Source: Leptolyngbyaceae cyanobacterium
GTDB lineage: Bacteria > Cyanobacteriota > Cyanobacteriia > Phormidesmidales > Phormidesmidaceae
Direction: 5' to 3'
Length of the DNA stretch: 64,000 bases
Assembly (NCBI GenBank): GCA_965263355.1
Contig: CBDHHL010000056.1
Location: 96,001-160,000 of the forward strand
Numbering within the stretch: the first letter of the stretch is position 1; every line of letters starts with the position of its first letter. Shown one piece after another: positions 16,456 through 42,675 of this stretch. Under the pieces are notes generated by a model. The model searched no databases. It worked only from the letters and a program-made list of their open reading frames with translations, and was not told where the DNA came from. The position numbers and the translations under genes are program-made.

Positions 16456-16947
16456 ATGATGGTTAGCAATGATTTATTACCGCAGACAATTAGTGGCTAT
16501 GAAATTGATCAATTAGACCTGAATATTATTAAACTTCTGCAACATAATGGACGCATTGCCTATAGCGATATTGCTCGTTCGATTGATGCCCCTGAGGCAA
16601 CAATTCGATATCGGGTTAAGCGGCTCATTGATGAAAAAATCATTTCTATTAGTGCCTTTATTAATACGGGCAAAGTTAAGTATGAAAATGTTGCTTACAT
16701 TGAGTTGGAAACTGAGCCTAATTTCTTAGACGATGATCTCAATGAGCTGGTAGTAATGGAAAATATTAGCTACGTAGCATCCGTCACGGGAGACTATGAT
16801 GTTATGTTGGAATATATCTACAAAGATAATGAGGATTTGCTAAATTTTATCAACACATTAAAGCAAAATCCTAACGTAAAACGTCTCAGCTCAAGAACAA
16901 TTCTGAAAATTCATAAGGCCCAGTATCCGGCTAGAGTTCAACCGTAA
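16456..16947 (+). CDS. Lrp/AsnC family transcriptional regulator
   Basis: IDQLDLNIIKLLQHNGRIAYSDIA..ATIRYRVKRL HTH, SVTGDYD RAM domain. Confidence 0.92.
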   Translation: MMVSNDLLPQTISGYEIDQLDLNIIKLLQHNGRIAYSDIARSIDAPEATIRYRVKRLIDEKIISISAFINTGKVKYENVAYIELETEPNFLDDDLNELVVMENISYVASVTGDYDVMLEYIYKDNEDLLNFINTLKQNPNVKRLSSRTILKIHKAQYPARVQP

Positions 16948-16970
16948 ACCTCTTAAAAATAAATTTTGCA

Positions 16971-17179
16971 ATTTTAATTTTATACTCTGCCCTCTTCGCA
17001 GGAAACCAGTCCAAAACATATATAATCGCCCCCGCCGTAAACCCAACTTATGCAAGTAGAGATAACATAGTATGAGGGTTGTAGGGCGGCATCCCGCCAT
17101 GCCCAGGGGGTTTGGGGAACTCGGAGGGACCCCAAGCAACATCTTGAACTTCCTTGCCAACCGCGCAGCGTCCCTACAA
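16971..17179. repeat. Dispersed ~200-250 bp repeat element, copy 1
   Basis: Shares identical 21-nt (17076-17096) and 24-nt (17122-17145) blocks and further homology with 31830-32085. Confidence 0.8.
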
Positions 17180-17223
17180 GATCACCTATTCGAATAAAAC
17201 TTACTGAATACGAAAGAAAAAAA

Positions 17224-18078
17224 TCAAGGCATTTTAGCCGTCTTTCCAATTACATCCAGTGGGTCTTCTCTTAATAACGTCTCCTGGGTATTAACATCCG
17301 CTTCAATTACATTTTCTAGATGACGCTGTAGGGCTAGAAAATCAGAATCGTAGCGATCGCAAAATCTATCCTCAGAAATATTCACCGTTTCAATAATCCG
17401 ACCCGGTCTATCCCCAATCACAATTAACTTTTGGCCCAACAAAATCGCCTCTTCCACATTGTGGGTCACCAGCACCATCGTCGTTGCCGTATCTTCCCAA
17501 ATAGACGACAAAAATTTCTGCAACCTGCGCCGTAGTTGAATATCTAAGGCAGAAAAGGGTTCATCTAATAACAGCACATCGGGTTGGACTGCAATGGATC
17601 GAGCAATGGATACCCGCTGTTTCATGCCCCCTGAAAGCTGATGGGGATAGGATTTCCGGGCATGGGAAAGGCCCACCTGTGCCAACACATCCCTAACTTT
17701 GGTGGCATAATGGATCTGTTTTTTGCCCCGGACCTTAAACCCAAAGCCAATATTTTGTTCAACTGTTAACCAGGGATACAGGGTATTTTCCTGGAACACC
17801 ATGCCAATTTTTGGGGTGATGCCCTTAAGGGGAACCCCATGGAATAGCACCTGACCCGCACTGGGATGGATAAATCCACCTAACAGTTTGAGTAAAGTGG
17901 ATTTTCCGCCGCCTGATTGTCCCAAAATGGTAACAAAATCTCCCTGGTTGACGTTCAGGTTAACGTTGGCTAAGACGGTTGTTTGGCTGCGACCGGATGA
18001 AAAATGTTTAGCGACATTCTGGCAGGTGAGGATGGCAGAGCTGGAAATGGGGGTTGGGGTGCGATCGCGAGACTCCAT
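17224..18078 (-). CDS. NitT/TauT-type ABC transporter ATP-binding protein
   Basis: GQSGGGKST, VFQENTLYPWLTV, LSGGMKQR, LLLDEPFSALD. Confidence 0.92.
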   Translation of the reverse strand: MESRDRTPTPISSSAILTCQNVAKHFSSGRSQTTVLANVNLNVNQGDFVTILGQSGGGKSTLLKLLGGFIHPSAGQVLFHGVPLKGITPKIGMVFQENTLYPWLTVEQNIGFGFKVRGKKQIHYATKVRDVLAQVGLSHARKSYPHQLSGGMKQRVSIARSIAVQPDVLLLDEPFSALDIQLRRRLQKFLSSIWEDTATTMVLVTHNVEEAILLGQKLIVIGDRPGRIIETVNISEDRFCDRYDSDFLALQRHLENVIEADVNTQETLLREDPLDVIGKTAKMP

Positions 18079-18129
18079 AGCTTATACCAAATTCGAATTC
18101 ATTAAACCCGATTAAAAATGGATAATCCT

Positions 18130-18156
18130 GTAGGGGCAATCCCTTGTGGTTGCCCT
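18130..18156 (+). repeat. GTAG-type REP sequence
   Basis: gtaggggcaatcccttgtggttgccct; homologous to the reverse complement of 61297-61324. Confidence 0.6.
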
Positions 18157-18189
18157 TCAATACTGGGTGCCATCAGCCAGGATTTAGTA

Positions 18190-18999
18190 TTACACCTGCC
18201 ACCAGAAAAACTTTCGCTGAATCAACAACAGCAGTCGATCTACCGCAAATCCAGTAATCCCAATAATACAGATCCCCAACAAGATCAAATTACTATTAAA
18301 CAGATTTCGTCCAGTCATCACCACTGTACCCAGCCCATCTCGCAATCCAGTCATTTCTGCTGCCAGTACCGCCATCCAGGCCGCAATAAAATTTAACCGC
18401 AATAGGGTAAATACCCCTGGCAAAACCGCTGGCACGATCACCCATCGCCACCGATTAAAACTACCCCCTCCCAGATTTTGTGCTGTCATTAACAGTGGTT
18501 CAGGGATGCGTTTAATCTCCGCCACCGTAGCAATGGTCAAGGTAAAGAACACACCCATAAACACAATAAACACTGCCGTTAAGTTACTCACCCCAAAGAC
18601 AACCAGGGCCAATGGTACCCAGGCAATGGGGGCAATCGGTGCAATTAATCCTAATATGGGCAAGATAAAAAGCTCCGACCACTTCGAGAGACTGATTAAA
18701 AGACCACACACAATCGACCCAATAAAGGCCACTGTCATTCCCAGTAGCACACGAACCAACGTGACTGCCACCGATTGGTAAATCGAAGCTGCCTGGGAAC
18801 CCAGACCAATCTTAAAATCACTCTCAAATAAGACGGGCAAAAACTGAGATGGCGGTGGTAAAACCTGGGTAATCGGATTCTCTGGATTGCGACCAATGCT
18901 TTCCCAAAGTCCTACTAAAACAGCACAAGATAGCAGACCACATCCAATCGAAAGCAGCGATTGTCGCCAGACTTGTTGATCCCGAATACTGTGTTTCAT
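18190..18999 (-). CDS. NitT/TauT-type ABC transporter permease
   Basis: LPPPS, PIAPIAWVPL, EAA-like loop, W...LAAEM.G...GLG. Confidence 0.9.
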   Translation of the reverse strand: MKHSIRDQQVWRQSLLSIGCGLLSCAVLVGLWESIGRNPENPITQVLPPPSQFLPVLFESDFKIGLGSQAASIYQSVAVTLVRVLLGMTVAFIGSIVCGLLISLSKWSELFILPILGLIAPIAPIAWVPLALVVFGVSNLTAVFIVFMGVFFTLTIATVAEIKRIPEPLLMTAQNLGGGSFNRWRWVIVPAVLPGVFTLLRLNFIAAWMAVLAAEMTGLRDGLGTVVMTGRNLFNSNLILLGICIIGITGFAVDRLLLLIQRKFFWWQV

Positions 19000-19056
19000 T
19001 GGCCTAGGGCTTGTTAAAAAGTAAGCTCTGCGAAGTCATTTTTAAACAACCCCCTC

Positions 19057-20130
19057 CTACTCTAATGATTTGACCAAGGTCGTATCAAAAATATCCTTAG
19101 CCGGAACATCTGATTCGATGTACTTCAGTTCCACCATTTTATCGACCACAGTTTGTACAGCATCTAAGTCAGGCGTAAACGTAATCGGTGATGGCTGAGT
19201 TTCAAAGGCCGTTAACAATACCTCATCTTCAACCCGATAATAATTTCCATCCTTCAACAGTTCAATTGCTTTGGCTGGGTCAGTATTAATAATCTCAGCA
19301 GAACATTGCATCCCTTTGATGTAGGCTTTGACCACTTCTGGACGCTCACTGAGGGTTTTGTCTAATACACTCACTACGGTGTTTGGCGTGGTGGGAGACC
19401 AAACCTCGGCATTATCGGTTAAGACAGTTGCCTCACCGCTGGTAACAAACTGAGTAGTATAGGGCTTAATGTGACTGAGAATATCCACCTCGCCGACTCG
19501 GAAGGCGTCTACCATGGCCAACAGATCATCAAAGTAGACCATTTCAAAGGCGTCGGGCGAAATACCTGCCTCTTCAAAGGCATCCACCAAAATTAGTTCA
19601 AGGGTATCGCCTCGTAGGGTGGCGATTTTTAGTTTAGTATCTGGGTTTTCTGAGACAAATGCTACTAAATCTGATATTGATGCCACTCCATGCTCATTGT
19701 TAATGATTACCTGCATGACGCCCCAACCCCCAGCGGCGGAGACAGTCTTGATGGGGACACCACTATTCGCGGCAAAAAATGGCAAAGTAAAAGGATTGGT
19801 ACTAAAGTCAATGCTGCCACCAGCCAGGGCTGCATTGTTGTCACCAGGGTTTGTAAACGCAACTGTTTCAACGGCCAGACCATTGTCTTCAAAACAGCCT
19901 GACTCCACCCCCACAAACAAAGGAGCCATATCTAAAGCAACCAAGTGCCCCGCTTTGACAGGGGTTAACTCAGCTACTGGGGCTGCCTCTGCCTCTGCAA
20001 TCTCTGATGTCTCAGCTGCTGGAGATTCTGTTACATCATCTGTGGGACTAGATGAAGCACAGGAAATCCACAAAAGACTACCTGCAGATAAGACTATTAT
20101 CCGCTTTAACAATAGAAAAGTGGGATTCAT
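19057..20130 (-). CDS. NitT/TauT (SsuA/NMT1-like) ABC substrate-binding lipoprotein
   Basis: Lipobox WISC, AL..G.ID motif, operon with the permease and ATPase. Confidence 0.85.
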   Translation of the reverse strand: MNPTFLLLKRIIVLSAGSLLWISCASSSPTDDVTESPAAETSEIAEAEAAPVAELTPVKAGHLVALDMAPLFVGVESGCFEDNGLAVETVAFTNPGDNNAALAGGSIDFSTNPFTLPFFAANSGVPIKTVSAAGGWGVMQVIINNEHGVASISDLVAFVSENPDTKLKIATLRGDTLELILVDAFEEAGISPDAFEMVYFDDLLAMVDAFRVGEVDILSHIKPYTTQFVTSGEATVLTDNAEVWSPTTPNTVVSVLDKTLSERPEVVKAYIKGMQCSAEIINTDPAKAIELLKDGNYYRVEDEVLLTAFETQPSPITFTPDLDAVQTVVDKMVELKYIESDVPAKDIFDTTLVKSLE

Positions 20131-20198
20131 ATGGTTACTCAGCCCCCAACGCTGCTCTTTAAACTTGGAAGAAAACGCTTACTGCTCACACAACTATG

Positions 20199-20240
20199 AG
20201 GGTAGGTGAGTCAATAGGTATTTTTTGTAACTGATGAAAC
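20199..20240 (-). promoter_or_regulatory. Candidate class II NtcA-activated promoter for the ABC operon
   Basis: Minus strand GTTtcatcagtTAC (20240-20227, one mismatch to GTA-N8-TAC), exactly 22 nt, then TAcccT (20204-20199). Confidence 0.55.
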
Positions 20241-20350
20241 AATCTCAGCAAAAATACAGCTACAAAAGTTAATCAATTCGCAAAAGTAGAACCATCAGCT
20301 ACGAATTGATTAAGTCTTGCTTTCTTTTTTATAGAATTGTTGACTCTAGC

Positions 20351-20410
20351 CCACGTCCAAGGTGTACCCTACAGGTTCTTTACGGAAAAATGACCATTCT
20401 GGACGTGGAC
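20351..20410 (-). repeat. ~60-bp palindromic mini-repeat, copy A
   Basis: ccacgtcca/tggacgtgg termini; homologous to 62543-62604 and 58499-58560. Confidence 0.7.
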
Positions 20411-20426
20411 AAAGGATATATCCTCA

Positions 20427-21098
20427 TCAAACTAACGTAGTCTCCAAGAGAGCAGACGAGTGTGCTACCCAACCCAGTACCCCTCCCTCTGATTGCAGGA
20501 TATGGACCGTGGCATCATGATCCCTGGCATCGAAAGCAGCACAGCAATCATCCAATAGCAGGCAGTAATACCCCAAATCACTAGCATGGCGATAGGTAGC
20601 TAAAACACAACATTGGGTGGTCACGCCACTAATCAAAAGGTGAGTGATATTATCAGCGTGTAATCGTTGATCAAGGCAGGTATTTACAAAGCAAGAGTGA
20701 GCCGGTTTATCGAGTTGTTCCTCTTCAGACACCGGTTGTAACTCATCAATAATGGCAGCCCCAAGCTCCCCTTGCACGAGAAACCGACCCATTTTGCCCG
20801 CCTGACCAATGGGTGATCCGGCATTGGCATAGCGGATTTTTTTGCTGGGTGATAAATCCGATAGGTCCGGCACATGGCTTTCTCGAGTAAAGATAACCTT
20901 AAGTCCGATTTGTCTGGCCCAGGCCACTAAGGATTGAACCGCAGGTATAATCGCGCGAACAGCTGTCATATCAAGCCCTAACTCACTACCATTGAACCCA
21001 TCAGGATGGCAAAAGTCATTTTGCATATCAATAACCAGTAAGGCTGTTTGGTCAAGCGGCAGATCGAATGAATGGGTATAGGTATTGACTACAACCAT
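20427..21098 (-). CDS. Isochorismatase-like cysteine hydrolase, biuret/guanylurea hydrolase subgroup
   Basis: IDMQNDFC, TRE.H.PDLSD, G.MGRFLV.GE.G, DKP, GVTT.CCV, EGGVLG. Asp-Lys-Cys triad present. Confidence 0.8.
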   Translation of the reverse strand: MVVVNTYTHSFDLPLDQTALLVIDMQNDFCHPDGFNGSELGLDMTAVRAIIPAVQSLVAWARQIGLKVIFTRESHVPDLSDLSPSKKIRYANAGSPIGQAGKMGRFLVQGELGAAIIDELQPVSEEEQLDKPAHSCFVNTCLDQRLHADNITHLLISGVTTQCCVLATYRHASDLGYYCLLLDDCCAAFDARDHDATVHILQSEGGVLGWVAHSSALLETTLV

Positions 21099-21325
21099 AA
21101 ATACCTCATGGGAACATCTCCAATGCTATTAGGTGATACTGTTATGCCTAAAACTGTTTTAATAAACAGCTCTTGAGATTTAATCTAATCCTGATAAGAT
21201 CGTTTTTAAGCCTAATCTATGCAAATAGCGTATCAAGTTTCACATTTTTCACATTTACACTTATTGTCACATTTATCGGATGTAGTCGCCGCCTACTCAT
21301 TTTTGAAAGTAATGGGATTAAAGCC

Positions 21326-21946
21326 ATGACATCGCATCATCATCGTCCTGAATCTGAAATCGCTCTGCGGGTTAAAGCTATTGAGTCGCTGTTGGTAGAG
21401 AAAGGAATTGTTGACCCAGCTGCCCTGGATGCCATTATTGATACCTATGAGCATAATGTGGGTCCCCATATCGGTGCTCAAATTGTTGCTAAGGCTTGGG
21501 TTGATCCTGAGTTTAAGCAACGACTTTTAGCTGATGGTACCAGTGCGATTTCAGAACTAGGTTTCACAGGGTTTTCTAGTGAACATATGGTAGTGGTGGA
21601 AAATACCTCGGCTGTACACAACTTGATTGTCTGTACTCTTTGTTCCTGTTATCCCTGGGCAATTTTAGGGCTACCTCCTACCTGGTACAAATCCTTTGCC
21701 TACCGATCCCGTGCGGTGATTGAACCCCGCAAGGTTTTGCAAGAGTTCGGTTTGGACATTCCTGAAGACGTTGAAGTGCGGGTATGGGACAGTAATGCAG
21801 ACTTACGTTATCTCGTTTTACCCGAACGACCTGCAGGAGCTGAGGAGTTGTCAGAAAAAGACCTGGCAGCCCTTGTTACCCGCAATGCCATGATTGGCAC
21901 AGCTAACGTTCAATCGCCCATTGTGTCTACCTCTATTGTTGCTTAG
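21326..21946 (+). CDS. nthA: Nitrile hydratase alpha subunit, cobalt type
   Basis: [10 protein letters not shown] metal motif (Thr/Tyr marks the Co type), LGLPP.WYKS..YR.R.V..PR, VRVWDS..RYLVLP.RP. ATG 21326 preferred. Confidence 0.95.
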
Positions 21947-21957
21947 GAGCTATCGCC

Positions 21958-22263
21958 ATGAATGGTCCCCATGATTTGGGTGGTATGCATGGATTGGGTC
22001 CAATTCCCATTGAAGAGAACGAACCTGTGTTTCATAGCGAATGGGAAGCCCAGGTATTTGCCATGAGCTTTGCCACCTTTGTGAACTATTTTCCAGTGGA
22101 TGAAACTCGCCATGCGTCAGAACAAATGCCTCCTGGTGAATATTTAAGCTCCAGTTATTACGAACGTTGGCTCTATGCCCTAGAGCTTTTACTCACCAAG
22201 CATAATCTTGTTACCCCAGACGAAATCGAAGCCAGAATCGCTGAATTTGCCCAGGCAGAGTAA
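21958..22263 (+). CDS. Nitrile hydratase beta subunit, N-terminal part (separate ORF)
   Basis: MNGPHDLGGMHG.GP, EPVF..EWE, RHA.E.M.P.EYL..YYERWL. Confidence 0.9.
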   Translation: MNGPHDLGGMHGLGPIPIEENEPVFHSEWEAQVFAMSFATFVNYFPVDETRHASEQMPPGEYLSSSYYERWLYALELLLTKHNLVTPDEIEARIAEFAQAE

Positions 22264-22294
22264 CCTCTCATATCACTCCGTTTACCCCTACCCC

Positions 22295-22663
22295 ATGGCC
22301 ATCGAAACTCCTAACCAATGTATGACTGCCCAAGATGCCAAAACTCTTCTAGGCGAGGGGTTAAGCTGTCAGGCAGAAAGTGATTTACCTGCTCAGTTTC
22401 ATGTGGGGGACCTGGTCAGGGCAAAAGTTATGCACCCCAAGACCTATACGCGTTTACCCCGCTACATTCGAGGCAAAGTGGGAGAAATTGTCAAAGATCA
22501 TGGTACATATATTTTTCCGGACACCATGGGACAACGGCTATCCACAAAACCTCAACACGTCTACAGTGTGCGGTTTTCTGCCCAGGAGCTTTGGGGACAG
22601 GACGTCTCACCCAATGACTCCCTCTATATTGATTTATTTGATGACCATTTAGAATCTCCTTAG
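22295..22663 (+). CDS. Nitrile hydratase beta subunit, C-terminal SH3-like part (separate ORF)
   Basis: F.VGD.VR, TRLPRYIRGK.G, FPD, PQHVYSVRF...ELWG, IDLFDDHLE. ATG at 22295. Confidence 0.88.
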   Translation: MAIETPNQCMTAQDAKTLLGEGLSCQAESDLPAQFHVGDLVRAKVMHPKTYTRLPRYIRGKVGEIVKDHGTYIFPDTMGQRLSTKPQHVYSVRFSAQELWGQDVSPNDSLYIDLFDDHLESP

Positions 22664-22676
22664 AGCTTACGGATTT

Positions 22677-23042
22677 ATGTCTCTACCACAAAACAGAAAT
22701 TCTCCTCTGTCTGCCTCTGCTCAAAAAGATAATGAACCCGTCTTTCAGGCACCTTGGGAAGCCAGGGCATTTGCCATTGTCAATCAACTCGCTAATGCTC
22801 TGGAATACAGTTGGTCTGAGTGGACTGATCAATTTGTAGAGGAAATCTCAGTTGCTGAGAATGATCCCACCGATACAAGCTCGTATTACGAACGTTGGGT
22901 GCGAACTTGCGAAAAGCTGTTAATTGCTAAAGGCATTCTGAATCCATTGGCTATTGATCAGCGCATCAAAGAATTGCGAGTTGAACGTGAAACCAATGTA
23001 GAACATGAGCATCAGGAGCCAGAAGCTAGTAAGACCCTATAG
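22677..23042 (+). CDS. Nitrile hydratase accessory/activator protein (P14K/NhlE-like)
   Basis: EPVF.APWEARAFA, W.EW, YYERW...EKLL..KG, C-terminal HEH. Confidence 0.85.
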   Translation: MSLPQNRNSPLSASAQKDNEPVFQAPWEARAFAIVNQLANALEYSWSEWTDQFVEEISVAENDPTDTSSYYERWVRTCEKLLIAKGILNPLAIDQRIKELRVERETNVEHEHQEPEASKTL

Positions 23043-23099
23043 TCTGACTTCTAATTAAGAAAAATCCTACTTTGAGTTGACACCCACCCAGAGGTTATT

Positions 23100-23954
23100 T
23101 TGGAACTTCTAGTTTTGCGTTCATGGTGTACCGGCCCAGCCAATTTAGAAGCGCTTGTTCAGCAGACCTTGGATGACGGCTTTGACGGGATTGAGGCACC
23201 AATTCCCGAAGACATTCAACAAAGGCAGCTCCTTCGTCGTCTCTTGCAGGAGCACGGGCTGGTTTTTATTGCGGAAGCAACCACGGGGATCGACCCAGAT
23301 AATACCAAGGATTGGTGGATTCCTCACCCTGACCGTAGCATTTGCGATCATCTGGCTGATTTGCAGTGGGCGGTGGACCATGCTAATGAAATCGGGGCCA
23401 TGTTTGTCTCTACGATGTGTGGCTATGATGCCTGGTCCTGGCAGCAAAATGTGGACTTTTTTGGCCGTGCTTTAGAACTAGAGCAAACATCCGGTACTAC
23501 CATTAGTTTTGAAACCCATCGTAGCCGCTCACTTTACAATCCCTGGATTACCCGAGACCTGCTGAACCAGTTTCCTGCGATGAAGCTCACCTGTGACTTT
23601 AGCCATTGGTGTGTTGTCTGTGAACGCTTGCTTGACACGGAGTGGTCAATCTTAGAACTTTGTGCTGAAAGAGCCCAACATATTCAATGTCGTGTGGGTT
23701 ATTCTCAACATGCCCAGGTTGCAGATCCCCGTGCGCCTGAATCCCAGGAGGCATTAGAGGCCCATGAGCGTTGGTGGCGTTTGATTTGGGAGAAACAACA
23801 GCAACGGGGTATGGCTAAGACAACGATGATGCCGGAATTTCTCTACGATGGCTATATGCAAACTTTGCCCTATACGGGAATGCCGGTGGCCGATGTGTGG
23901 GAGATTACCTGTTGGATGGCTGAGCGGCAACGGCAACACTTCTCTAAGCAGTAG
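23100..23954 (+). CDS. Sugar phosphate isomerase/epimerase-like TIM-barrel protein
   Basis: GFDGIE, FETHR.R, LTCDFSHW..V.ER, RVG....QV.DPR, PEF. Confidence 0.75.
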   Translation: MELLVLRSWCTGPANLEALVQQTLDDGFDGIEAPIPEDIQQRQLLRRLLQEHGLVFIAEATTGIDPDNTKDWWIPHPDRSICDHLADLQWAVDHANEIGAMFVSTMCGYDAWSWQQNVDFFGRALELEQTSGTTISFETHRSRSLYNPWITRDLLNQFPAMKLTCDFSHWCVVCERLLDTEWSILELCAERAQHIQCRVGYSQHAQVADPRAPESQEALEAHERWWRLIWEKQQQRGMAKTTMMPEFLYDGYMQTLPYTGMPVADVWEITCWMAERQRQHFSKQ

Positions 23955-24552: not shown

Positions 24553-26040
24553 ATGCTTGACTCAACATACCATCAACTCACCAATAACGAGATAGCTCAG
24601 CTTGGAGAACGCTATGAGCTACTAGAGGCCATTGGACATGGCGGTATGAGCATTGTATTTCGTGGGCGCGATCAGGTACTCAACCGAGCAGTTGCCCTCA
24701 AGCTATGCAAACCCAATATCGATGTTTCGCGTCTGCATCGAGAAGCCATCGCCATGGCGGGCATTCAGTCTCGCCACGTAGTCACCGTCCATGACTTTTT
24801 AAAGCTAAGTCAGGACCGGGGCGTACTGGTGATGGATTGGATTGAAGGTAAAGATCTGGCCACGATTATGGGCGATCAATCCTGCTCCCTAAAGGATGAT
24901 GTCGTGCGGCAGTGGATGCGGGATGTCTGTATTGGCATGATCGATGCTGAGTCTAAAGGCGTTATTCACCGAGATCTTAAGCCATCTAACATCATTATCG
25001 ATGCCCATCAGCGTGCTTTGGTGATGGATTTTGGCATTGCCACTGGCAAAACGATGAATCAGCTGACGTTGGATGGTCAAGTGATTGGCACTCCACTATA
25101 CATGGCTCCAGAACAGGCTGAAGACCCAAGCAAGGTCGATACCAGAGCTGATGTGTATAGCTTTGGTGCAACGTTCTACCATGCCATTGTGCGACAGCCG
25201 CCGTTTGACGCTGAAACGCCCTGGTCCGTTGTGTGGAAGCATAAGACAGAACCCTTAATTCCACCCAAATCCCTCAATCCATCCATTAGTAGTGTATTGA
25301 ATGATTGTATTGAACGGTGTTTAGCCAAAGATCCAGCCGATCGGTTTTCTAGTTTTTCCCAAATAAATGAAGTCCTGAGTTCGTCTACTGTGCGTCCTTG
25401 GGAACACACTATTGACGAAACCCTCGCTAACTATTTGGGCGTTTTCAGGGTTCATCGCAAACAATTTTTAAGCCCTGATCTAGCCGAAATCGATCGACCG
25501 ACAATTTTTGATTTTCCCAATAGGCGTCGCCTCAAGATTCTCTTTGGTGATTTAACTGAACAAGGGGTAGACGCCCTTGTGAGTTCAGATGATGCCATGT
25601 TAACTATGAGCAGCGGTGTGTCCGCTGCCCTAGCCCAAAAAGCCGGTGGAGCATTCCGCGAAGAGGCCCAACGATTTACCCCCGCGCGGGCCGGCAGAGT
25701 TGTTGTTACCCCTGCCGGAGATTTGCCATCAAGGTTTGTATTTCATGGTATTTCCATTGGCATAGATGGAGAATCTCAACAGTTTCCCACCCGCGATGTC
25801 ATTGCCGAAATTGTTGACAGCTGTTTCTACCAGGCAGAAACCCTATCTATTCAGTCAATTGCGTTTCCCCTGCTGGGTACAGGAAACGCTGGGTTTCCCC
25901 GTGGGGTTGCCTTAGACACCATGTTTCGCATCATTGCCCACAGACTGCTCAGACGCATTACCCCCATCAAAGAAGTAAGAATTGTCCTTTGGCCAGAGGA
26001 CACCTCACCAGATGACGACAATACTCTGATTTTGAACTAA
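24553..26040 (+). CDS. Ser/Thr protein kinase fused to a C-terminal macrodomain
   Basis: GHGGMS, VALK, HRDLKPSN, DFG, YMAPE; then GDLT...DALV, GVS.AL..AG, VVVTPAGDL, SIAFPLLGTG..GFP. Confidence 0.88.
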   Translation: MLDSTYHQLTNNEIAQLGERYELLEAIGHGGMSIVFRGRDQVLNRAVALKLCKPNIDVSRLHREAIAMAGIQSRHVVTVHDFLKLSQDRGVLVMDWIEGKDLATIMGDQSCSLKDDVVRQWMRDVCIGMIDAESKGVIHRDLKPSNIIIDAHQRALVMDFGIATGKTMNQLTLDGQVIGTPLYMAPEQAEDPSKVDTRADVYSFGATFYHAIVRQPPFDAETPWSVVWKHKTEPLIPPKSLNPSISSVLNDCIERCLAKDPADRFSSFSQINEVLSSSTVRPWEHTIDETLANYLGVFRVHRKQFLSPDLAEIDRPTIFDFPNRRRLKILFGDLTEQGVDALVSSDDAMLTMSSGVSAALAQKAGGAFREEAQRFTPARAGRVVVTPAGDLPSRFVFHGISIGIDGESQQFPTRDVIAEIVDSCFYQAETLSIQSIAFPLLGTGNAGFPRGVALDTMFRIIAHRLLRRITPIKEVRIVLWPEDTSPDDDNTLILN

Positions 26041-26823: not shown

Positions 26824-27519
26824 TCAAAGCTTAATTTTAGGGTAAACGGAGGCTAGCTTACAGCGAGCATCATCGACCTGCATCTGCCAGTCAACTCCCC
26901 GTTGCCTGTTGTTGATATCGTTCGACCAAGCTGTCGTTTCAGCCCGTAGCGTATCGATGTCTTCAAAGCGTCTACCATCAATGCACTGTCGAGTCATTGC
27001 ACTCACATCATTTTCTGCGATGTTGAGCCAACTGCCATGCTTCGGGGTATAACAAAATTCGATTCGCTGCACCAATTTTCGCGCTCGTTCAGGCTCGAAT
27101 GCTTCGTAAAAAGCCCCTTTGGTGTGTGTATTGAGATTGTCACACACCAATCGTACTTTCTCGCAATCGGCATAGCGGTTTTCCAGTATGTCAGCCACTT
27201 CAAGCGCCCAATCCACTTTGGTGCGACTCGGACGTACGCTCACTTGCCGCCAACCGGCTAACGGCTCAGTAAACATGAAAATACTCGCGGTCCCGGCCCG
27301 TTCATACTCATAGTCCACCCGTTTGCCATGGTTAGCCGTGGCCGGAAGCGGGGGACGACTCTCTCGTTGAAATTGAACGGGTTGTTCATCCATGCAAATC
27401 GTCGGACGGGTTGGGTCGTAAGGCTGGGCATAGACATCAAGCACCGCTTCCATGTGAGCCACAAATTCAGCATCGGTCTCAGGGGGAATCACCCAGTACT
27501 CTATCTTGCGATTGGTCAT
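26824..27519 (-). CDS. IS630 transposase, DDE catalytic part (ORF B)
   Basis: CMDEQP, DYEYER.G, LVCDNLNTH, YTPKHGSWLNIAE. Confidence 0.9.
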   Translation of the reverse strand: MTNRKIEYWVIPPETDAEFVAHMEAVLDVYAQPYDPTRPTICMDEQPVQFQRESRPPLPATANHGKRVDYEYERAGTASIFMFTEPLAGWRQVSVRPSRTKVDWALEVADILENRYADCEKVRLVCDNLNTHTKGAFYEAFEPERARKLVQRIEFCYTPKHGSWLNIAENDVSAMTRQCIDGRRFEDIDTLRAETTAWSNDINNRQRGVDWQMQVDDARCKLASVYPKIKL

Positions 27520-27959
27520 GCCATTTTTTTCAGAGTCTGTCGCACCGTCTCATGGCTGACCGTGTCAACCAGACCCAATTCAACCACCTTACGAGCTAGC
27601 AAACGCAATGACCAATTGGCATACCCGGCGGGAGGGGCTCCTAATCGCAGGGCAATCACCTGGGCTTCCTGCTCGCCATCAAGGAGCTTATCCGTGGGGG
27701 GACGGCGTCGCTTCGCACCATTAAGAGTTACCGCAAACCCTTGCTCAACCAAGCGGCGGCGAATATTCTCCACGGTCTTTGTTCGACAGTCAAACGCATC
27801 GGCGATCTCCTGGTCAGTCCAGTTCGATCCATCGGCATCCGCTTTCAGTAAAATCTGAGCGCGACGCACTTTCTGGCTGCTGCCCTTCAGCTTTTTGATC
27901 ACCGCTTGTAACTGATGGCGCTCATCGGGAGTTAGACGGACAATATACTTTTTCTGCAT
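27516..27959 (-). CDS. IS630 transposase, HTH part (ORF A), likely joined to ORF B by a frameshift at an A7 run
   Basis: KKYIVRLT, RRAQILLKAD, PP.GYANWSLRLLA, SHETVRQTLKK; minus-strand CTGAAAAAAATGG at the ORF junction. Confidence 0.88.
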   Translation of the reverse strand: MQKKYIVRLTPDERHQLQAVIKKLKGSSQKVRRAQILLKADADGSNWTDQEIADAFDCRTKTVENIRRRLVEQGFAVTLNGAKRRRPPTDKLLDGEQEAQVIALRLGAPPAGYANWSLRLLARKVVELGLVDTVSHETVRQTLKKMA

Positions 27960-30834: not shown

Positions 30835-31815
30835 ATGGTAACCGAAAACATTTATAATACCGTGCCCGTAACCGTTTTGACCGGCTACTTAGGTGCAGGT
30901 AAAACCACCCTACTAAATCGCATTCTCACCCATGAGCATGGCAAAAAAGTAGCCGTAATCGTCAACGAATTTGGAGAGGTGGGCATCGACAATCAGCTGG
31001 TAGTAGATGCCGACGAAGAAGTATTTGAAATGAACAACGGCTGTATCTGTTGCACCGTGCGGGGAGACCTGATTCGCATCATTGGTAACCTGATGAAGCG
31101 CCGCGACAAGTTTGACCATCTAGTAATTGAAACCACAGGACTGGCGGACCCGGCCCCAGTAATCCAAACCTTCTTTGTGGACGATGAGGTGCAGTTGCAA
31201 ACCCGTCTAGATGCAGTCGTAACGGTGGTAGACGCCCGTCATATCTGGCAGCATTGGGAAGCAGAAGAAGCCGTGGAGCAAATTGCCTTTGCCGACGTTA
31301 TTTTGCTCAATAAGATTGACCTGGTCACAGAAGAGGACCTAACAGAACTGGAACAGCGGATTCGAAGCATGAATGCCCTAGCCAAAATCCATCGCACCCG
31401 TGATGCCCAAATCGAAATGGACGCCCTCCTTGGCGTCAGCGCATTTGACCTCAATAACGCCCTACAAATCGACCCAGATTTTCTCGACGAAACCGCCCAT
31501 GACCACGACGAAACCGTCGGTTCAGTTGCTCTGGTAGAGTCAGGGCAACTCGATGGCGACAAACTGGAAGCCTGGATAGGAGAACTACTACGCGACCACG
31601 GACCCGATATTTTTCGCATGAAAGGCATTCTCAACATGGCCGGCGAAGACAACCGATTTGTCTTTCAAGGCGTGCACATGTTGTTTGACGGTCGCCAGGA
31701 CCGCCCCTGGAAACCAGACGAATCCCGCAAAAACGAACTAGTATTTATCGGTCGTAACCTGGAGCAGCTAAATCTAGGCGAGCGCTTTCGCGACTGTTTG
31801 GTAACGAGTCTCTAG
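30835..31815 (+). CDS. COG0523/CobW family zinc metallochaperone GTPase
   Basis: GYLGAGKTT, NEFG, GCICC, ETTG.ADP, NKID, CobW_C RMKG..FQGVH. Confidence 0.93.
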   Translation: MVTENIYNTVPVTVLTGYLGAGKTTLLNRILTHEHGKKVAVIVNEFGEVGIDNQLVVDADEEVFEMNNGCICCTVRGDLIRIIGNLMKRRDKFDHLVIETTGLADPAPVIQTFFVDDEVQLQTRLDAVVTVVDARHIWQHWEAEEAVEQIAFADVILLNKIDLVTEEDLTELEQRIRSMNALAKIHRTRDAQIEMDALLGVSAFDLNNALQIDPDFLDETAHDHDETVGSVALVESGQLDGDKLEAWIGELLRDHGPDIFRMKGILNMAGEDNRFVFQGVHMLFDGRQDRPWKPDESRKNELVFIGRNLEQLNLGERFRDCLVTSL

Positions 31816-31829
31816 GAAACAACGTCATG

Positions 31830-32085
31830 ATTTGAATCTTATGCACTGAATTTCCTGCAGAAATCGATCTAGAACCTTTATAATCGACCCCGCCGTACCC
31901 CTAAACTTGATGCCATTAAGAATAACCTGGTACGGTGGGTTGTAGGGCGGCATCCCGGCCCGGCCCAGGGGAAACTCCAGTATGCCTAAAAGAGATAACT
32001 GAACTATTTCCAGAAAGGGAACACGGAGGGACCCCAAGCAACATCTTAAAACTCCCCACCAACACTTACGCCACGTTTCCTAAAC
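31830..32085. repeat. Dispersed repeat element, copy 2
   Basis: Identical blocks 31937-31957 and 32024-32047 versus copy 1, with an internal insertion of roughly 40 nt. Confidence 0.8.
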
Positions 32086-32114
32086 AGCCTCTCTAGCCAG
32101 TAATACCCAGGACC

Positions 32115-33197
32115 ATGCTGAAAACAAAAAAGCATAAACAAACCGTGCTCAAGCGGCTGTGGGACACTCATCTTTCAGACTACGTAACCACCGTTACCTG
32201 GTCCCCCGATGGCACTCACCTCGCCGCCAGTTCTGGCGCAGGCGAGGTGTTACTCTACACCCCTGAAACAGACAAATCCACCTACCTACAAAGCCCTCAG
32301 GGAGAGTCTGTAGACGCCCTAGCCATCTCCGCCGATAGCCAATTTCTAGCCGCTGGAGGACAGGCCGGTACAGTCTGGATCTGGCAAATTGACAGCGATT
32401 CACCCACACTGCTAACAACTTTAGAACATGCCCGCACCTGGATTGACCGTCTACAATGGCATCCCCACTCACCGGAACTCGCCTTTAGTTTTGGTCGCTA
32501 CGTTCAGGTATGGCATGCCGTTGATCAAACAGTTGTCACCACCTTAAATTTTGAAGACTCTTCTGTGTTAGACCTGGCCTGGCATCCCCAGGGAACAGAG
32601 CTATCACTGGGCGGTAACCAGAGCATCAAAACCTGGCAGTCCCAGGACTGGGACAAGGACCCAGAGGTGAGGGAATTGGGTGGAGCTAGCGTGGCGGTTG
32701 CCTGGTCACCAGACGGCACCTATCTGGCATCGGGCAACAATGATCGGTCGGTTTTGGTGTGGGAAAAAGATCATCCCGCTCCCTGGCGGATGCAGGGATT
32801 TCCTGGCAAAGTGCGACAGTTGGGTTGGTCAAAACCTACGGTAAGGGATGCACCGCTGCTAGCATCGATGAGTGGAGAAGGAATTGTTGTGTGGACAAAA
32901 GCGGCTGATCCATCAGAGGGCTGGACTCCTAAGGTACTGGATTTACATGAGGGGACGGTGCAGGCAATTTCGTTTCGGCCCGGTACTCTATTACTAGCCT
33001 CTGCGGCTGAGGATGGTTGTTTGTATTTGTGGCAAAAGGCCCGTCGGATGGCGCAAGTTTTGGAAGGTGCCTCTAGCGGATTTTCGTGTCTAGATTGGTC
33101 TGCCCAGGGCACAATGCTAGCCGCTGGCGGTAGTGGCGGAGAGCTGTTTGTATGGACCGAAACAACCAAAGGAAAAGGATTTAGAACTCTTAGATAA
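32115..33197 (+). CDS. WD40 repeat protein (COG0523-associated)
   Basis: Repeated W(S/H)P.G..LA, V.(V/I)W blades. Confidence 0.9.
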   Translation: MLKTKKHKQTVLKRLWDTHLSDYVTTVTWSPDGTHLAASSGAGEVLLYTPETDKSTYLQSPQGESVDALAISADSQFLAAGGQAGTVWIWQIDSDSPTLLTTLEHARTWIDRLQWHPHSPELAFSFGRYVQVWHAVDQTVVTTLNFEDSSVLDLAWHPQGTELSLGGNQSIKTWQSQDWDKDPEVRELGGASVAVAWSPDGTYLASGNNDRSVLVWEKDHPAPWRMQGFPGKVRQLGWSKPTVRDAPLLASMSGEGIVVWTKAADPSEGWTPKVLDLHEGTVQAISFRPGTLLLASAAEDGCLYLWQKARRMAQVLEGASSGFSCLDWSAQGTMLAAGGSGGELFVWTETTKGKGFRTLR

Positions 33198-41331: not shown

Positions 41332-42675
41332 TTATTTTTGTGATTGTTGTTTAGGTTGTTGTTGAACGCCCAATAACTTTGCTAGTGGGGACTTTTTGCG
41401 TCTCAGTACAGCTATGTATTTTTCTTCATCATAAGGGACACCATCTTGCCAACAGCGCCAGAGAATTCTTCCCCACTTATAGGCCAAGGCACGAATCGCT
41501 TTAGGATGACTTTTACCTGATTGCTTCTGCTGTAGATAAAAGGCTTGGGACCAAGTCGAATGTCGACGCGCTTGATCGACCCATTCAACAAAGGTTTGTC
41601 TGAGGAAAATTGGACATGACCAACGCCAATGAACCCAGCACTTTTTGCCGCTTTCCTCCTTGACAGGGGCAATACCGATATAGCTCATAAAGGCCTGAGC
41701 CGACGTAAAGCGCGTGCGGTCTTCGCCAAAGGCGACTAACAGTCGTGGCGCTAGATGCGGTCCGGCTCCCGGTAAGGCCTGAAATAACTCGGCATCTGGC
41801 AATGACTCAAACAGGTTAGCAATCTGTTGGTTAAATTCAGTTAATTGTTGTAAAACAACCTTAAGCAGAGTGATTAGACTTAAAGTCAGTGTTTTAGCCG
41901 GTATCACAATGGCGTCATCCTCAGTCAGCGGTGGGCCTGCGTCTTTGATTTGCTGAATCCTACGCTGAATCGTCGTCCGTCGAACAACATGATGGCGATG
42001 GAAAAACTGAGTGATTGTTTCAGGGGTTGCTGCTTGGGCCGCTTTGACATCGTCGAACTGCTCAATAAACTCACAAAAGACCTGCGTATCTTTATCTCTA
42101 AACCAATCAAGAACTTGAGGAAAATAGGATTTGAGTGATGCGGTGATACGGTTAGTCAAACGCACCTTTTCGCCCACTAACATCCGACGCGATTCTACCC
42201 ATTGTCTGAGGGCACGATGTTCAGGGCACCCTGCCACCCAAGCCTTTAGTTTATTGCCATGCTTACGCATTAACTCCACCAGAATACGGGCATCTACGGG
42301 GTCGGATTTGGCTCGTGATGGCTGAAACGCTTTTCGATAGTTGGCCACCGTTCTGGGATTAATGGGAAACAGCACTAAATTGTCATACTGACACAGCGCA
42401 TAGAGTAGAGGCCCTCGCTGTTGTTCAAGAGCAACCGCAATTTTGCCAGGACCATACCGTTCTCGGAGTTGTGTGACCCAATCCAGAATAGCTTGAGGAT
42501 GGTTTTGAATAATACTATTTTTCCAGGTGTCTGTTGCACAGTCATATACCGCAATGTCATTTTTTCGGTCAGCCCAGTCAATGCCCACATAGGCCACATA
42601 GTCAATCGACTCGATGGCCTTAGGCATAGGTGTTTCTGAAGCTGAGTCTGTAGTTATGGTTGGGGCTATTGTCAT
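41332..42675 (-). CDS. IS110 family recombinase/transposase
   Basis: GIDWAD, ALE, KSDPVDA (DEDD RuvC-like); LPGAG, GIAP..ESG (Tnp domain Ser); A.RALA.K. Confidence 0.95.
   Translation of the reverse strand: MTIAPTITTDSASETPMPKAIESIDYVAYVGIDWADRKNDIAVYDCATDTWKNSIIQNHPQAILDWVTQLRERYGPGKIAVALEQQRGPLLYALCQYDNLVLFPINPRTVANYRKAFQPSRAKSDPVDARILVELMRKHGNKLKAWVAGCPEHRALRQWVESRRMLVGEKVRLTNRITASLKSYFPQVLDWFRDKDTQVFCEFIEQFDDVKAAQAATPETITQFFHRHHVVRRTTIQRRIQQIKDAGPPLTEDDAIVIPAKTLTLSLITLLKVVLQQLTEFNQQIANLFESLPDAELFQALPGAGPHLAPRLLVAFGEDRTRFTSAQAFMSYIGIAPVKEESGKKCWVHWRWSCPIFLRQTFVEWVDQARRHSTWSQAFYLQQKQSGKSHPKAIRALAYKWGRILWRCWQDGVPYDEEKYIAVLRRKKSPLAKLLGVQQQPKQQSQK

Follow-up and report, generated by a model that had tools for sequence, protein, structure and literature searches.

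Guanylurea is a known degradation product of cyanoguanidine, or dicyandiamide (PMC11410670). On the hydrolase side, the closest described enzymes are BiuH, TrtA and a guanylurea hydrolase (GuuH). BiuH holds biuret via Gln215 and Lys145; kcat/KM on biuret is 149742 in the wild type and only 115 in the Q215E variant, and changes at K145 leave the enzyme effectively inactive (PMC5806882). TrtA retains the equivalents of both residues (PMC7948467), and the enzyme BB_00025 of P. mendocina MET turns over guanylurea at 11 umol/min/mg and biuret at 0.4 nmol/min/mg (PMC9800807). On the nitrile side, cobalt-type nitrile hydratases (NHases) hydrate the N-cyanoimine of acetamiprid (PMC11573777), and ScNHase of Streptomyces canus is a three-subunit enzyme (PMC7329996). 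Here we describe a gene cluster that brings relatives of these two kinds of enzyme together. It lies at 16456-23954 of a 64,000-nt stretch of DNA from a Leptolyngbyaceae cyanobacterium, the whole of which we call the window.

The cluster starts with an Lrp gene on the forward strand, followed on the reverse strand by the ATPase, permease and substrate-binding protein (SBP) genes of an ATP-binding cassette (ABC) importer and by a cysteine hydrolase gene; then, forward again, come the NHase alpha, beta-N, beta-C and activator genes and a triosephosphate isomerase (TIM) barrel gene (Table 1). Every gene that a sequence-only reading of this DNA had named was recovered by the open reading frame (ORF) list and the family scans. 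That reading took the NHase to hydrate an N-cyano compound to guanylurea, which the hydrolase would cleave, and its interpretation is supported by what follows; that cyanoguanidine is the substrate, we infer. Judging from the sequences, conversion of cyanoguanidine to guanylurea, and of this to carboxyguanidine or guanidine plus ammonia, has a somewhat better than even chance of being what the cluster does. The more general chemistry, from an N-cyano group to a guanylurea and with substituted substrates included, is probable.

The DNA offers genes, residues, synteny and regulatory motifs, and from these the cluster would be a module that serves under nitrogen starvation to use an N-cyano guanidine, cyanoguanidine being the simplest candidate. 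The ABC importer would bring in the substrate, a presumed ligand, under an NtcA switch here and a guanidine riboswitch in Prochlorococcus, both sites being recognised by sequence. The three-subunit Co-NHase would then hydrate the N-C#N group to guanylurea, and the hydrolase, with a characteristic Glu, would free ammonia from the carbamoyl end, leaving N-carboxyguanidine, an intermediate expected by analogy to the BiuH mechanism. From this point two exits can be envisaged. Carboxyguanidine may decarboxylate to guanidine, to be used in these cyanobacteria by the guanidine hydrolase GdmH, whose gene is unlinked; or, in some proteobacterial copies, it may be handed on to CgdAB and an allophanate hydrolase encoded in the operon itself, so that all four nitrogens would be released.

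Which hydrolase is it? The closest solved relatives are TrtA and BiuH, to both of which the predicted model fits with a TM score of 0.94-0.95, and the triad D24/K131/C164 aligns with Asp36/Lys142/Cys175 of BiuH. The residues that hold biuret are replaced: in the alignment Glu204 occupies the Gln215 site and His134 the Lys145 site. The motifs noticed earlier, DKPAH for DKPGK of BiuH and TrtA and SEGGVLG for MQGGVFG of BiuH, are as described. Because of Glu204 and His134 the protein is neither BiuH nor TrtA, and a BiuH assignment fails also on the NCBIfam model NF050097, where it scores 208 bits against a cut-off of 370.

The plasmid pMET-2 gave one match to the window hydrolase, a cysteine hydrolase adjoining a deaminase gene; we infer that this is the assayed BB_00025, as it fits the published description. 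It carries Glu at the Gln215 site and Tyr in place of Lys145. The sequence-only reading had put forward a Gln-to-Glu change at this site as the distinction between GuuH and BiuH, a rule that we take to hold, and the alignment bears the lead out, since E204 stands opposite the pMET-2 Glu and opposite Gln in BiuH and TrtA. The same Glu is found in 50 of 50 full-length BiuH-like partners from copies of the module, and Lys at the 145 site in 0 of 50 (an alignment that was not dereplicated, with one truncated row omitted). From these residues, the window hydrolase is predicted to work like GuuH.

The NHase alpha subunit scores 307 bits on TIGR01323 (cut-off 250), and the activator 66 bits on TIGR03889 (cut-off 46). 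Thiocyanate hydrolase (SCNase) shares the three-subunit architecture, but this assignment was ruled out by the score of alpha on its model TIGR03887 (188 bits, cut-off 291) and by the motif CYPW, where SCNase presumably has CYPR (Arg after CSCYP). Beta is encoded by two ORFs in different frames that retain both conserved Arg motifs, DETRH and TRLP. A frameshift artefact was rejected as the origin of this split: a public contig spans 18120-24100 with 2 substitutions and no gaps, and in relatives the break in beta falls at the same point, though the spacers differ. In beta-N, Thr precedes the conserved Arg where solved and amidase-linked Co-NHases have Phe; copies of the module have Thr or His. 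Apart from this Phe-to-Thr/His change, the pocket shows no residue that would mark a preference for N-cyano substrates.

A further peculiarity is the company that this NHase keeps. The usual partners, amidase or aldoxime dehydratase, are not linked to it in the window, and the earlier statement that the cluster has no member of the amidase-signature or nitrilase families was confirmed over 12 proteins around the cluster and another 27 large ORFs of the window. Among the control NHase operons fetched, the closest three (alpha identity 66-69% and 63%) all have an amidase and two have an aldoxime dehydratase; of three further controls, two have amidases and one shows none. Free trees split the NHases and hydrolases of the module, yet approximately unbiased (AU) tests do not reject a single clade (p=0.13 with 25 of 67 rows and p=0.19 with 27 rows), so we do not claim independent recruitment.

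How widespread is the association? Loci came from three sources: genomes, scanned with the hydrolase (best 80 of 532 matches); plasmids, searched with the SBP; and metagenomes, scanned with an alignment of SBPs (best 80 of 102). The 93 loci with the SBP form 68 clusters at 95% identity, 60 of which, here called core clusters, are at least 57% identical to the window SBP. NHase alpha lies within 7 kb in 43 of the 60, and in 42 of these an isochorismatase-family hydrolase is present as well; 14 end before the position of NHase alpha and 3 carry another enzyme (L116, L118 and L153). None of the 8 more distant SBP clusters has an NHase, only 2 of them being long enough to tell. The gene association noted in the sequence-only reading is conserved across phyla. 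In L153 a nitrilase takes the place of the NHase while the Glu-type hydrolase is retained, and this swap is a second pointer to a nitrile substrate.

The carriers are cyanobacteria and proteobacteria from marine, soil and wastewater sources, the latter phylum including Terrihabitans, Stutzerimonas and Klebsiella plasmids, and soil and ocean contigs. Terrihabitans rhizophilus PJ23 is a cultured carrier, and the cultured Leptolyngbya sp. PCC 6406 has the SBP. The usual proteobacterial order is LysR-SBP-permease-ATPase-beta-alpha-activator-hydrolase, often with HupE next, and beta is intact. By synteny, the Lrp gene is retained in the cyanobacterial copies and a LysR gene stands in its place in the proteobacterial ones. 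The nearest relatives of the window hydrolase (89%, 74-80%) belong to filamentous cyanobacteria of Leptolyngbya/Halomicronema type, among the best 80 of 532 matches, and of 120 genomes from the cyanobacterial family closest to the window, 26 have the importer. The SBP search returned 483 proteins at E<=1e-60; the nearest solved structures are at most 20% identical, and structure comparison gave no ligand signature. A Klebsiella wastewater plasmid (L085/L086, NZ_CP056226.1 27884-48249) carries the module with a two-domain nitrilase unit among Tn3 and insertion sequence (IS) elements, and also a second hydrolase of the Glu type, accompanied by a binding protein of the TIGR03427 type.

Guanidine genes give the clue to the product. 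CgdA/CgdB or guanidine carboxylase is present in the locus in 11 of 60 core clusters, and in L098, L101/L115, L105 and L106 CgdA and CgdB are embedded between SBP and permease, with an amidase, read as an allophanate hydrolase, after the hydrolase. Both Cgd proteins of L098 exceed their cut-offs. Its amidase scores above the threshold of the allophanate hydrolase model NF006043 (502 vs 487) and below that of TIGR02713 (477 vs 511). No guanidine carboxylase matched in these embedded-CgdAB loci, which span 16-19 kb; the genomes may encode one at another site. The substrate of CgdAB is carboxyguanidine (PMC11446756, PMC12186494), the first product expected from guanylurea by the BiuH mechanism, which argues for guanylurea as the substrate of the hydrolase; the nitrile that hydrates to guanylurea is, in turn, cyanoguanidine.

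Regulation adds to this picture. Rfam scans found guanidine-I riboswitches in 8 of 41 sources. In Prochlorococcus L016 and the nearly identical L147 the riboswitch lies immediately upstream of the module SBP gene; in L089, L142, L144, L152 and L111 it belongs to guanidine genes nearby, and in L013 it precedes GdmH. Together with the embedded CgdAB and allophanate hydrolase genes, these riboswitches show the association with guanidine catabolism that the sequence-only reading had suggested looking for. The Prochlorococcus single-cell genome (L016:8-4808, and L147) combines this riboswitch with an NHase whose branch in the tree is very long. No guanidine-I riboswitch was present in nine other module loci scanned from cyanobacteria. 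An NtcA-type site (GTN-N8-TAC, 22 nt, TAN3T) precedes the SBP gene in the window and in 15 of the 16 further intergenic regions from cyanobacteria, the single exception being a 61-base stretch. The motif, a form relaxed to GTN of what we take to be the NtcA consensus, has 3 matches in the whole window, and the chance expectation over the 17 regions is 0.26.

Several observations weigh against this interpretation. The window hydrolase and the pMET-2 enzyme share only 43-46% identity and fall in separate clades of a tree whose deep branches are unresolved, so that membership of GuuH is not proven. Nine cyanobacterial loci replace the Glu-type enzyme by an unrelated isochorismatase-family hydrolase (L083:9009-9608 and eight others; non-orthologous, ~199 aa), and in L116 and L118 an amidohydrolase closest to peptidase-like proteins stands in place of the NHase. 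Among four extra carrier stretches, one has the full module and two the transporter without an enzyme beside it (L196, L198); in L199 the NHase is on another contig, and one of the four extra genomes has no NHase match at all. The four embedded-CgdAB operons are related in the tree, hence they are not independent evidence. In the window itself CgdAB, guanidine carboxylase and GdmH gave no match, and Rfam scans found no guanidine riboswitch. As for GdmH in whole genomes, its presence in 10 of 10 cyanobacterial carriers first tested, vs 32 of 201 phylum-wide, was downgraded as evidence because the family baseline is already 94 of 120; within the family, carriers have it in 24 of 26 cases and non-carriers in 70 of 94 (two-sided p=0.06), a weak effect with kinship controlled. 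Finally, we know of no natural source of cyanoguanidine. The Prochlorococcus genomes searched, with NHase alpha in 2 of 151 and GdmH-like genes in 34 of 151, are too few for a co-occurrence test.

How else could the cluster be read? The chemistry may be as proposed and the molecule another, a natural substituted N-cyanoguanidine or N-cyanoamidine, free cyanoguanidine being a side substrate at best. Between phyla the SBPs share only 57-65% identity, and Prochlorococcus and contigs from the open ocean carry the module, so that it should predate industrial dicyandiamide, and NHases accept bulky N-cyanoimines (PMC11573777); however, the embedded CgdAB and the guanidine-I riboswitch point to an unsubstituted guanidine or carboxyguanidine as product, and we hold this explanation to be unlikely. 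Less credible is a pair of co-selected nitrogen-scavenging units, in which importer and hydrolase would serve guanylurea and the NHase an unrelated small nitrile, e.g., cyanamide. Divergent transcription of NHase and hydrolase in the window would suit such a division, but importer, NHase and hydrolase form a single same-strand run of abutting genes in proteobacteria. Likewise, the occurrence of the hydrolase clade without NHase in L005 and L010-L015, and of the transporter without enzymes elsewhere, has to be set against the 42 of 43 NHase clusters that also have a hydrolase; moreover, the SBP beside the assayed pMET-2 hydrolase gave no score against the module SBP in the plasmid search.

It is also improbable that the cluster serves an ordinary carbon-nitrile pathway with the isochorismatase-family protein as amidase, or that the NHase fold performs a non-nitrile hydrolysis, such as amidine to guanylurea. 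The first of these would sit well with the lack of an N-cyano-diagnostic residue and with the free tree, where the cyanobacterial module alpha groups with canonical amidase-linked Co-NHases, but it does not account for a Glu that never varies, for CgdAB and allophanate hydrolase genes within the operon or for the riboswitches; the nitrilase that stands in for the NHase in L153 speaks against both.

Table 1. Features of the cluster, with positions in the window
Feature	Position	Strand	Basis
Lrp/AsnC regulator, convergent with the ABC operon	16456..16947	+	Pfam PF13404 + PF01037
ABC importer ATPase, NitT/TauT type	17224..18078	-	family scans
ABC importer permease	18190..18999	-	family scans
SBP, NMT1/SsuA fold, module marker	19057..20130	-	family scans
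Candidate NtcA-type (class II) promoter, upstream of the SBP gene	20199..20240	-	motif match; assumed consensus
BiuH-fold cysteine hydrolase, isochorismatase family, predicted guanylurea hydrolase	20427..21098	-	alignment, predicted fold
Co-type NHase alpha, CTLCSCY	21326..21946	+	TIGR01323
NHase beta N-terminal half	21958..22263	+	PF21006
NHase beta C-terminal half, separate subunit	22286..22663	+	PF02211
NHase activator (accessory protein)	22677..23042	+	TIGR03889
Sugar-phosphate isomerase/epimerase-like TIM barrel (AP_endonuc_2), probably outside the module	23100..23954	+	family scan, synteny

Where does the module end? The earlier list of members holds for importer, NHase, hydrolase and Lrp, and probably not for the TIM-barrel gene, which among the loci mapped adjoins the module only in the window and in the close relative L127 (91%). 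Synteny speaks against it as a pathway member, and it is probably a bystander. Short repeated elements that match many other contigs flank the ATPase gene (window 17070-17145 and 18084-18185), and no riboswitch or conserved RNA was found in the window's intergenic regions. Beyond the cluster, the window has a Ser/Thr kinase fused to a C-terminal macrodomain (24553-26040), a two-ORF transposase element that is IS630-like by reading alone (26824-27959), a metallochaperone gene of the CobW/COG0523 type with a WD40 protein gene behind it (30835-33197), which lies 8 kb from the NHase and might have a part in cobalt supply, and an IS110-family transposase gene (41332-42675).

Elsewhere, the same parts appear in other arrangements. 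Members of the hydrolase clade that lack an NHase either follow genes for a creatininase-family protein and an NMT1 binding protein or lie close to GdmH (L010:6005-8639, L011, L012, L015:4847-14224); GdmH is the neighbour in L013 and L015. These loci could be another route converging on guanylurea. The amidohydrolase-family gene that follows the same importer in L116:4002-5429 and L118:3402-4799 could serve a deamination route.

Other units travel with the module. A second importer adjoins it in 8 loci (L085, L091, L103/L104, L119, L124, L140, L148, L153) and also in L199, its partner being a CYPR-motif NHase or a ~555-aa two-domain nitrilase-family protein; examples of the unit are L103:423-5357, L140:12368-16494, L119:10665-14862, L085:7231-11489 and L013:3267-7617. 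In one lineage (L099/L103/L104) a true BiuH (412 vs 370 bits) accompanies its CYPR NHase. As a lead only, this unit would fit an anionic N-cyano substrate, e.g., cyanourea or dicyanamide going to biuret. A third NHase operon, with DUF1097, CobW, intact beta, alpha and activator genes, lies beside the module in several cyanobacteria (e.g., L001:11357-14300), and is also found alone (Prochlorococcus-genus genome L189, G521) or with amidases.

What would be new? Each of the parts is of a known family; what appears to be new is their combination and the pathway proposed for it. In the open full-text literature no description of this operon was found, a coverage that leaves out most subscription and pre-1995 work on dicyandiamide degraders, and no paper covered has "dicyandiamide" together with "nitrile hydratase". 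It is tempting, though doubtful, to see in the module both the genes that have been missing for the step from cyanoguanidine to guanylurea and the centre of an old network, shared by several phyla, for scavenging N-cyano compounds. If so, finding it in Prochlorococcus and open-ocean proteobacteria would imply that the guanidine cycle is fed by a natural pool of N-cyano compounds that has gone unrecognised, and wastewater plasmids would document its recent spread.

Dicyandiamide is a widely used nitrification inhibitor and fertiliser additive. The module would supply the first testable genes for its conversion to guanylurea, together with markers of where the inhibitor would be lost, and it would give amidase-less NHases a physiological role. 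Where guanidine comes from in nature is an open question (PMC12623156, PMC12186494), and the module may also offer a new source upstream of it.

Set beside the known systems, the hydrolase resembles GuuH (P. mendocina GU; BB_00025 of MET) in its isochorismatase-like fold and Asp-Lys-Cys triad and, in a comparison made with the pMET-2 sequence, in having Glu in place of Gln215 and a residue other than Lys at position 145. Its setting is different: the MET enzyme is found with a deaminase on a metformin plasmid, whereas here the partners are an NHase and a different importer. With BiuH and TrtA it shares fold, triad and the equivalents of Phe41 and Thr171, and it departs from BiuH in the Glu and His that replace Gln215 and Lys145. 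The NHase has the split beta of ScNHase, and the CTLCSCY motif and activator of the acetamiprid-hydrating Co-NHases, which are a precedent for N-cyano hydration; unlike known Co-NHases, its partners are an importer and a GuuH-like hydrolase instead of an amidase or aldoxime dehydratase. Lastly, CgdAB, allophanate hydrolase and guanidine-I riboswitches, known from the pathways that degrade guanidine via guanidine carboxylase/CgdAB/AtzF or via GdmH, occur in or beside copies of the module. None of those pathway genes lies in the window, and in contrast to these guanidine-degrading routes the module would act as their upstream feeder.

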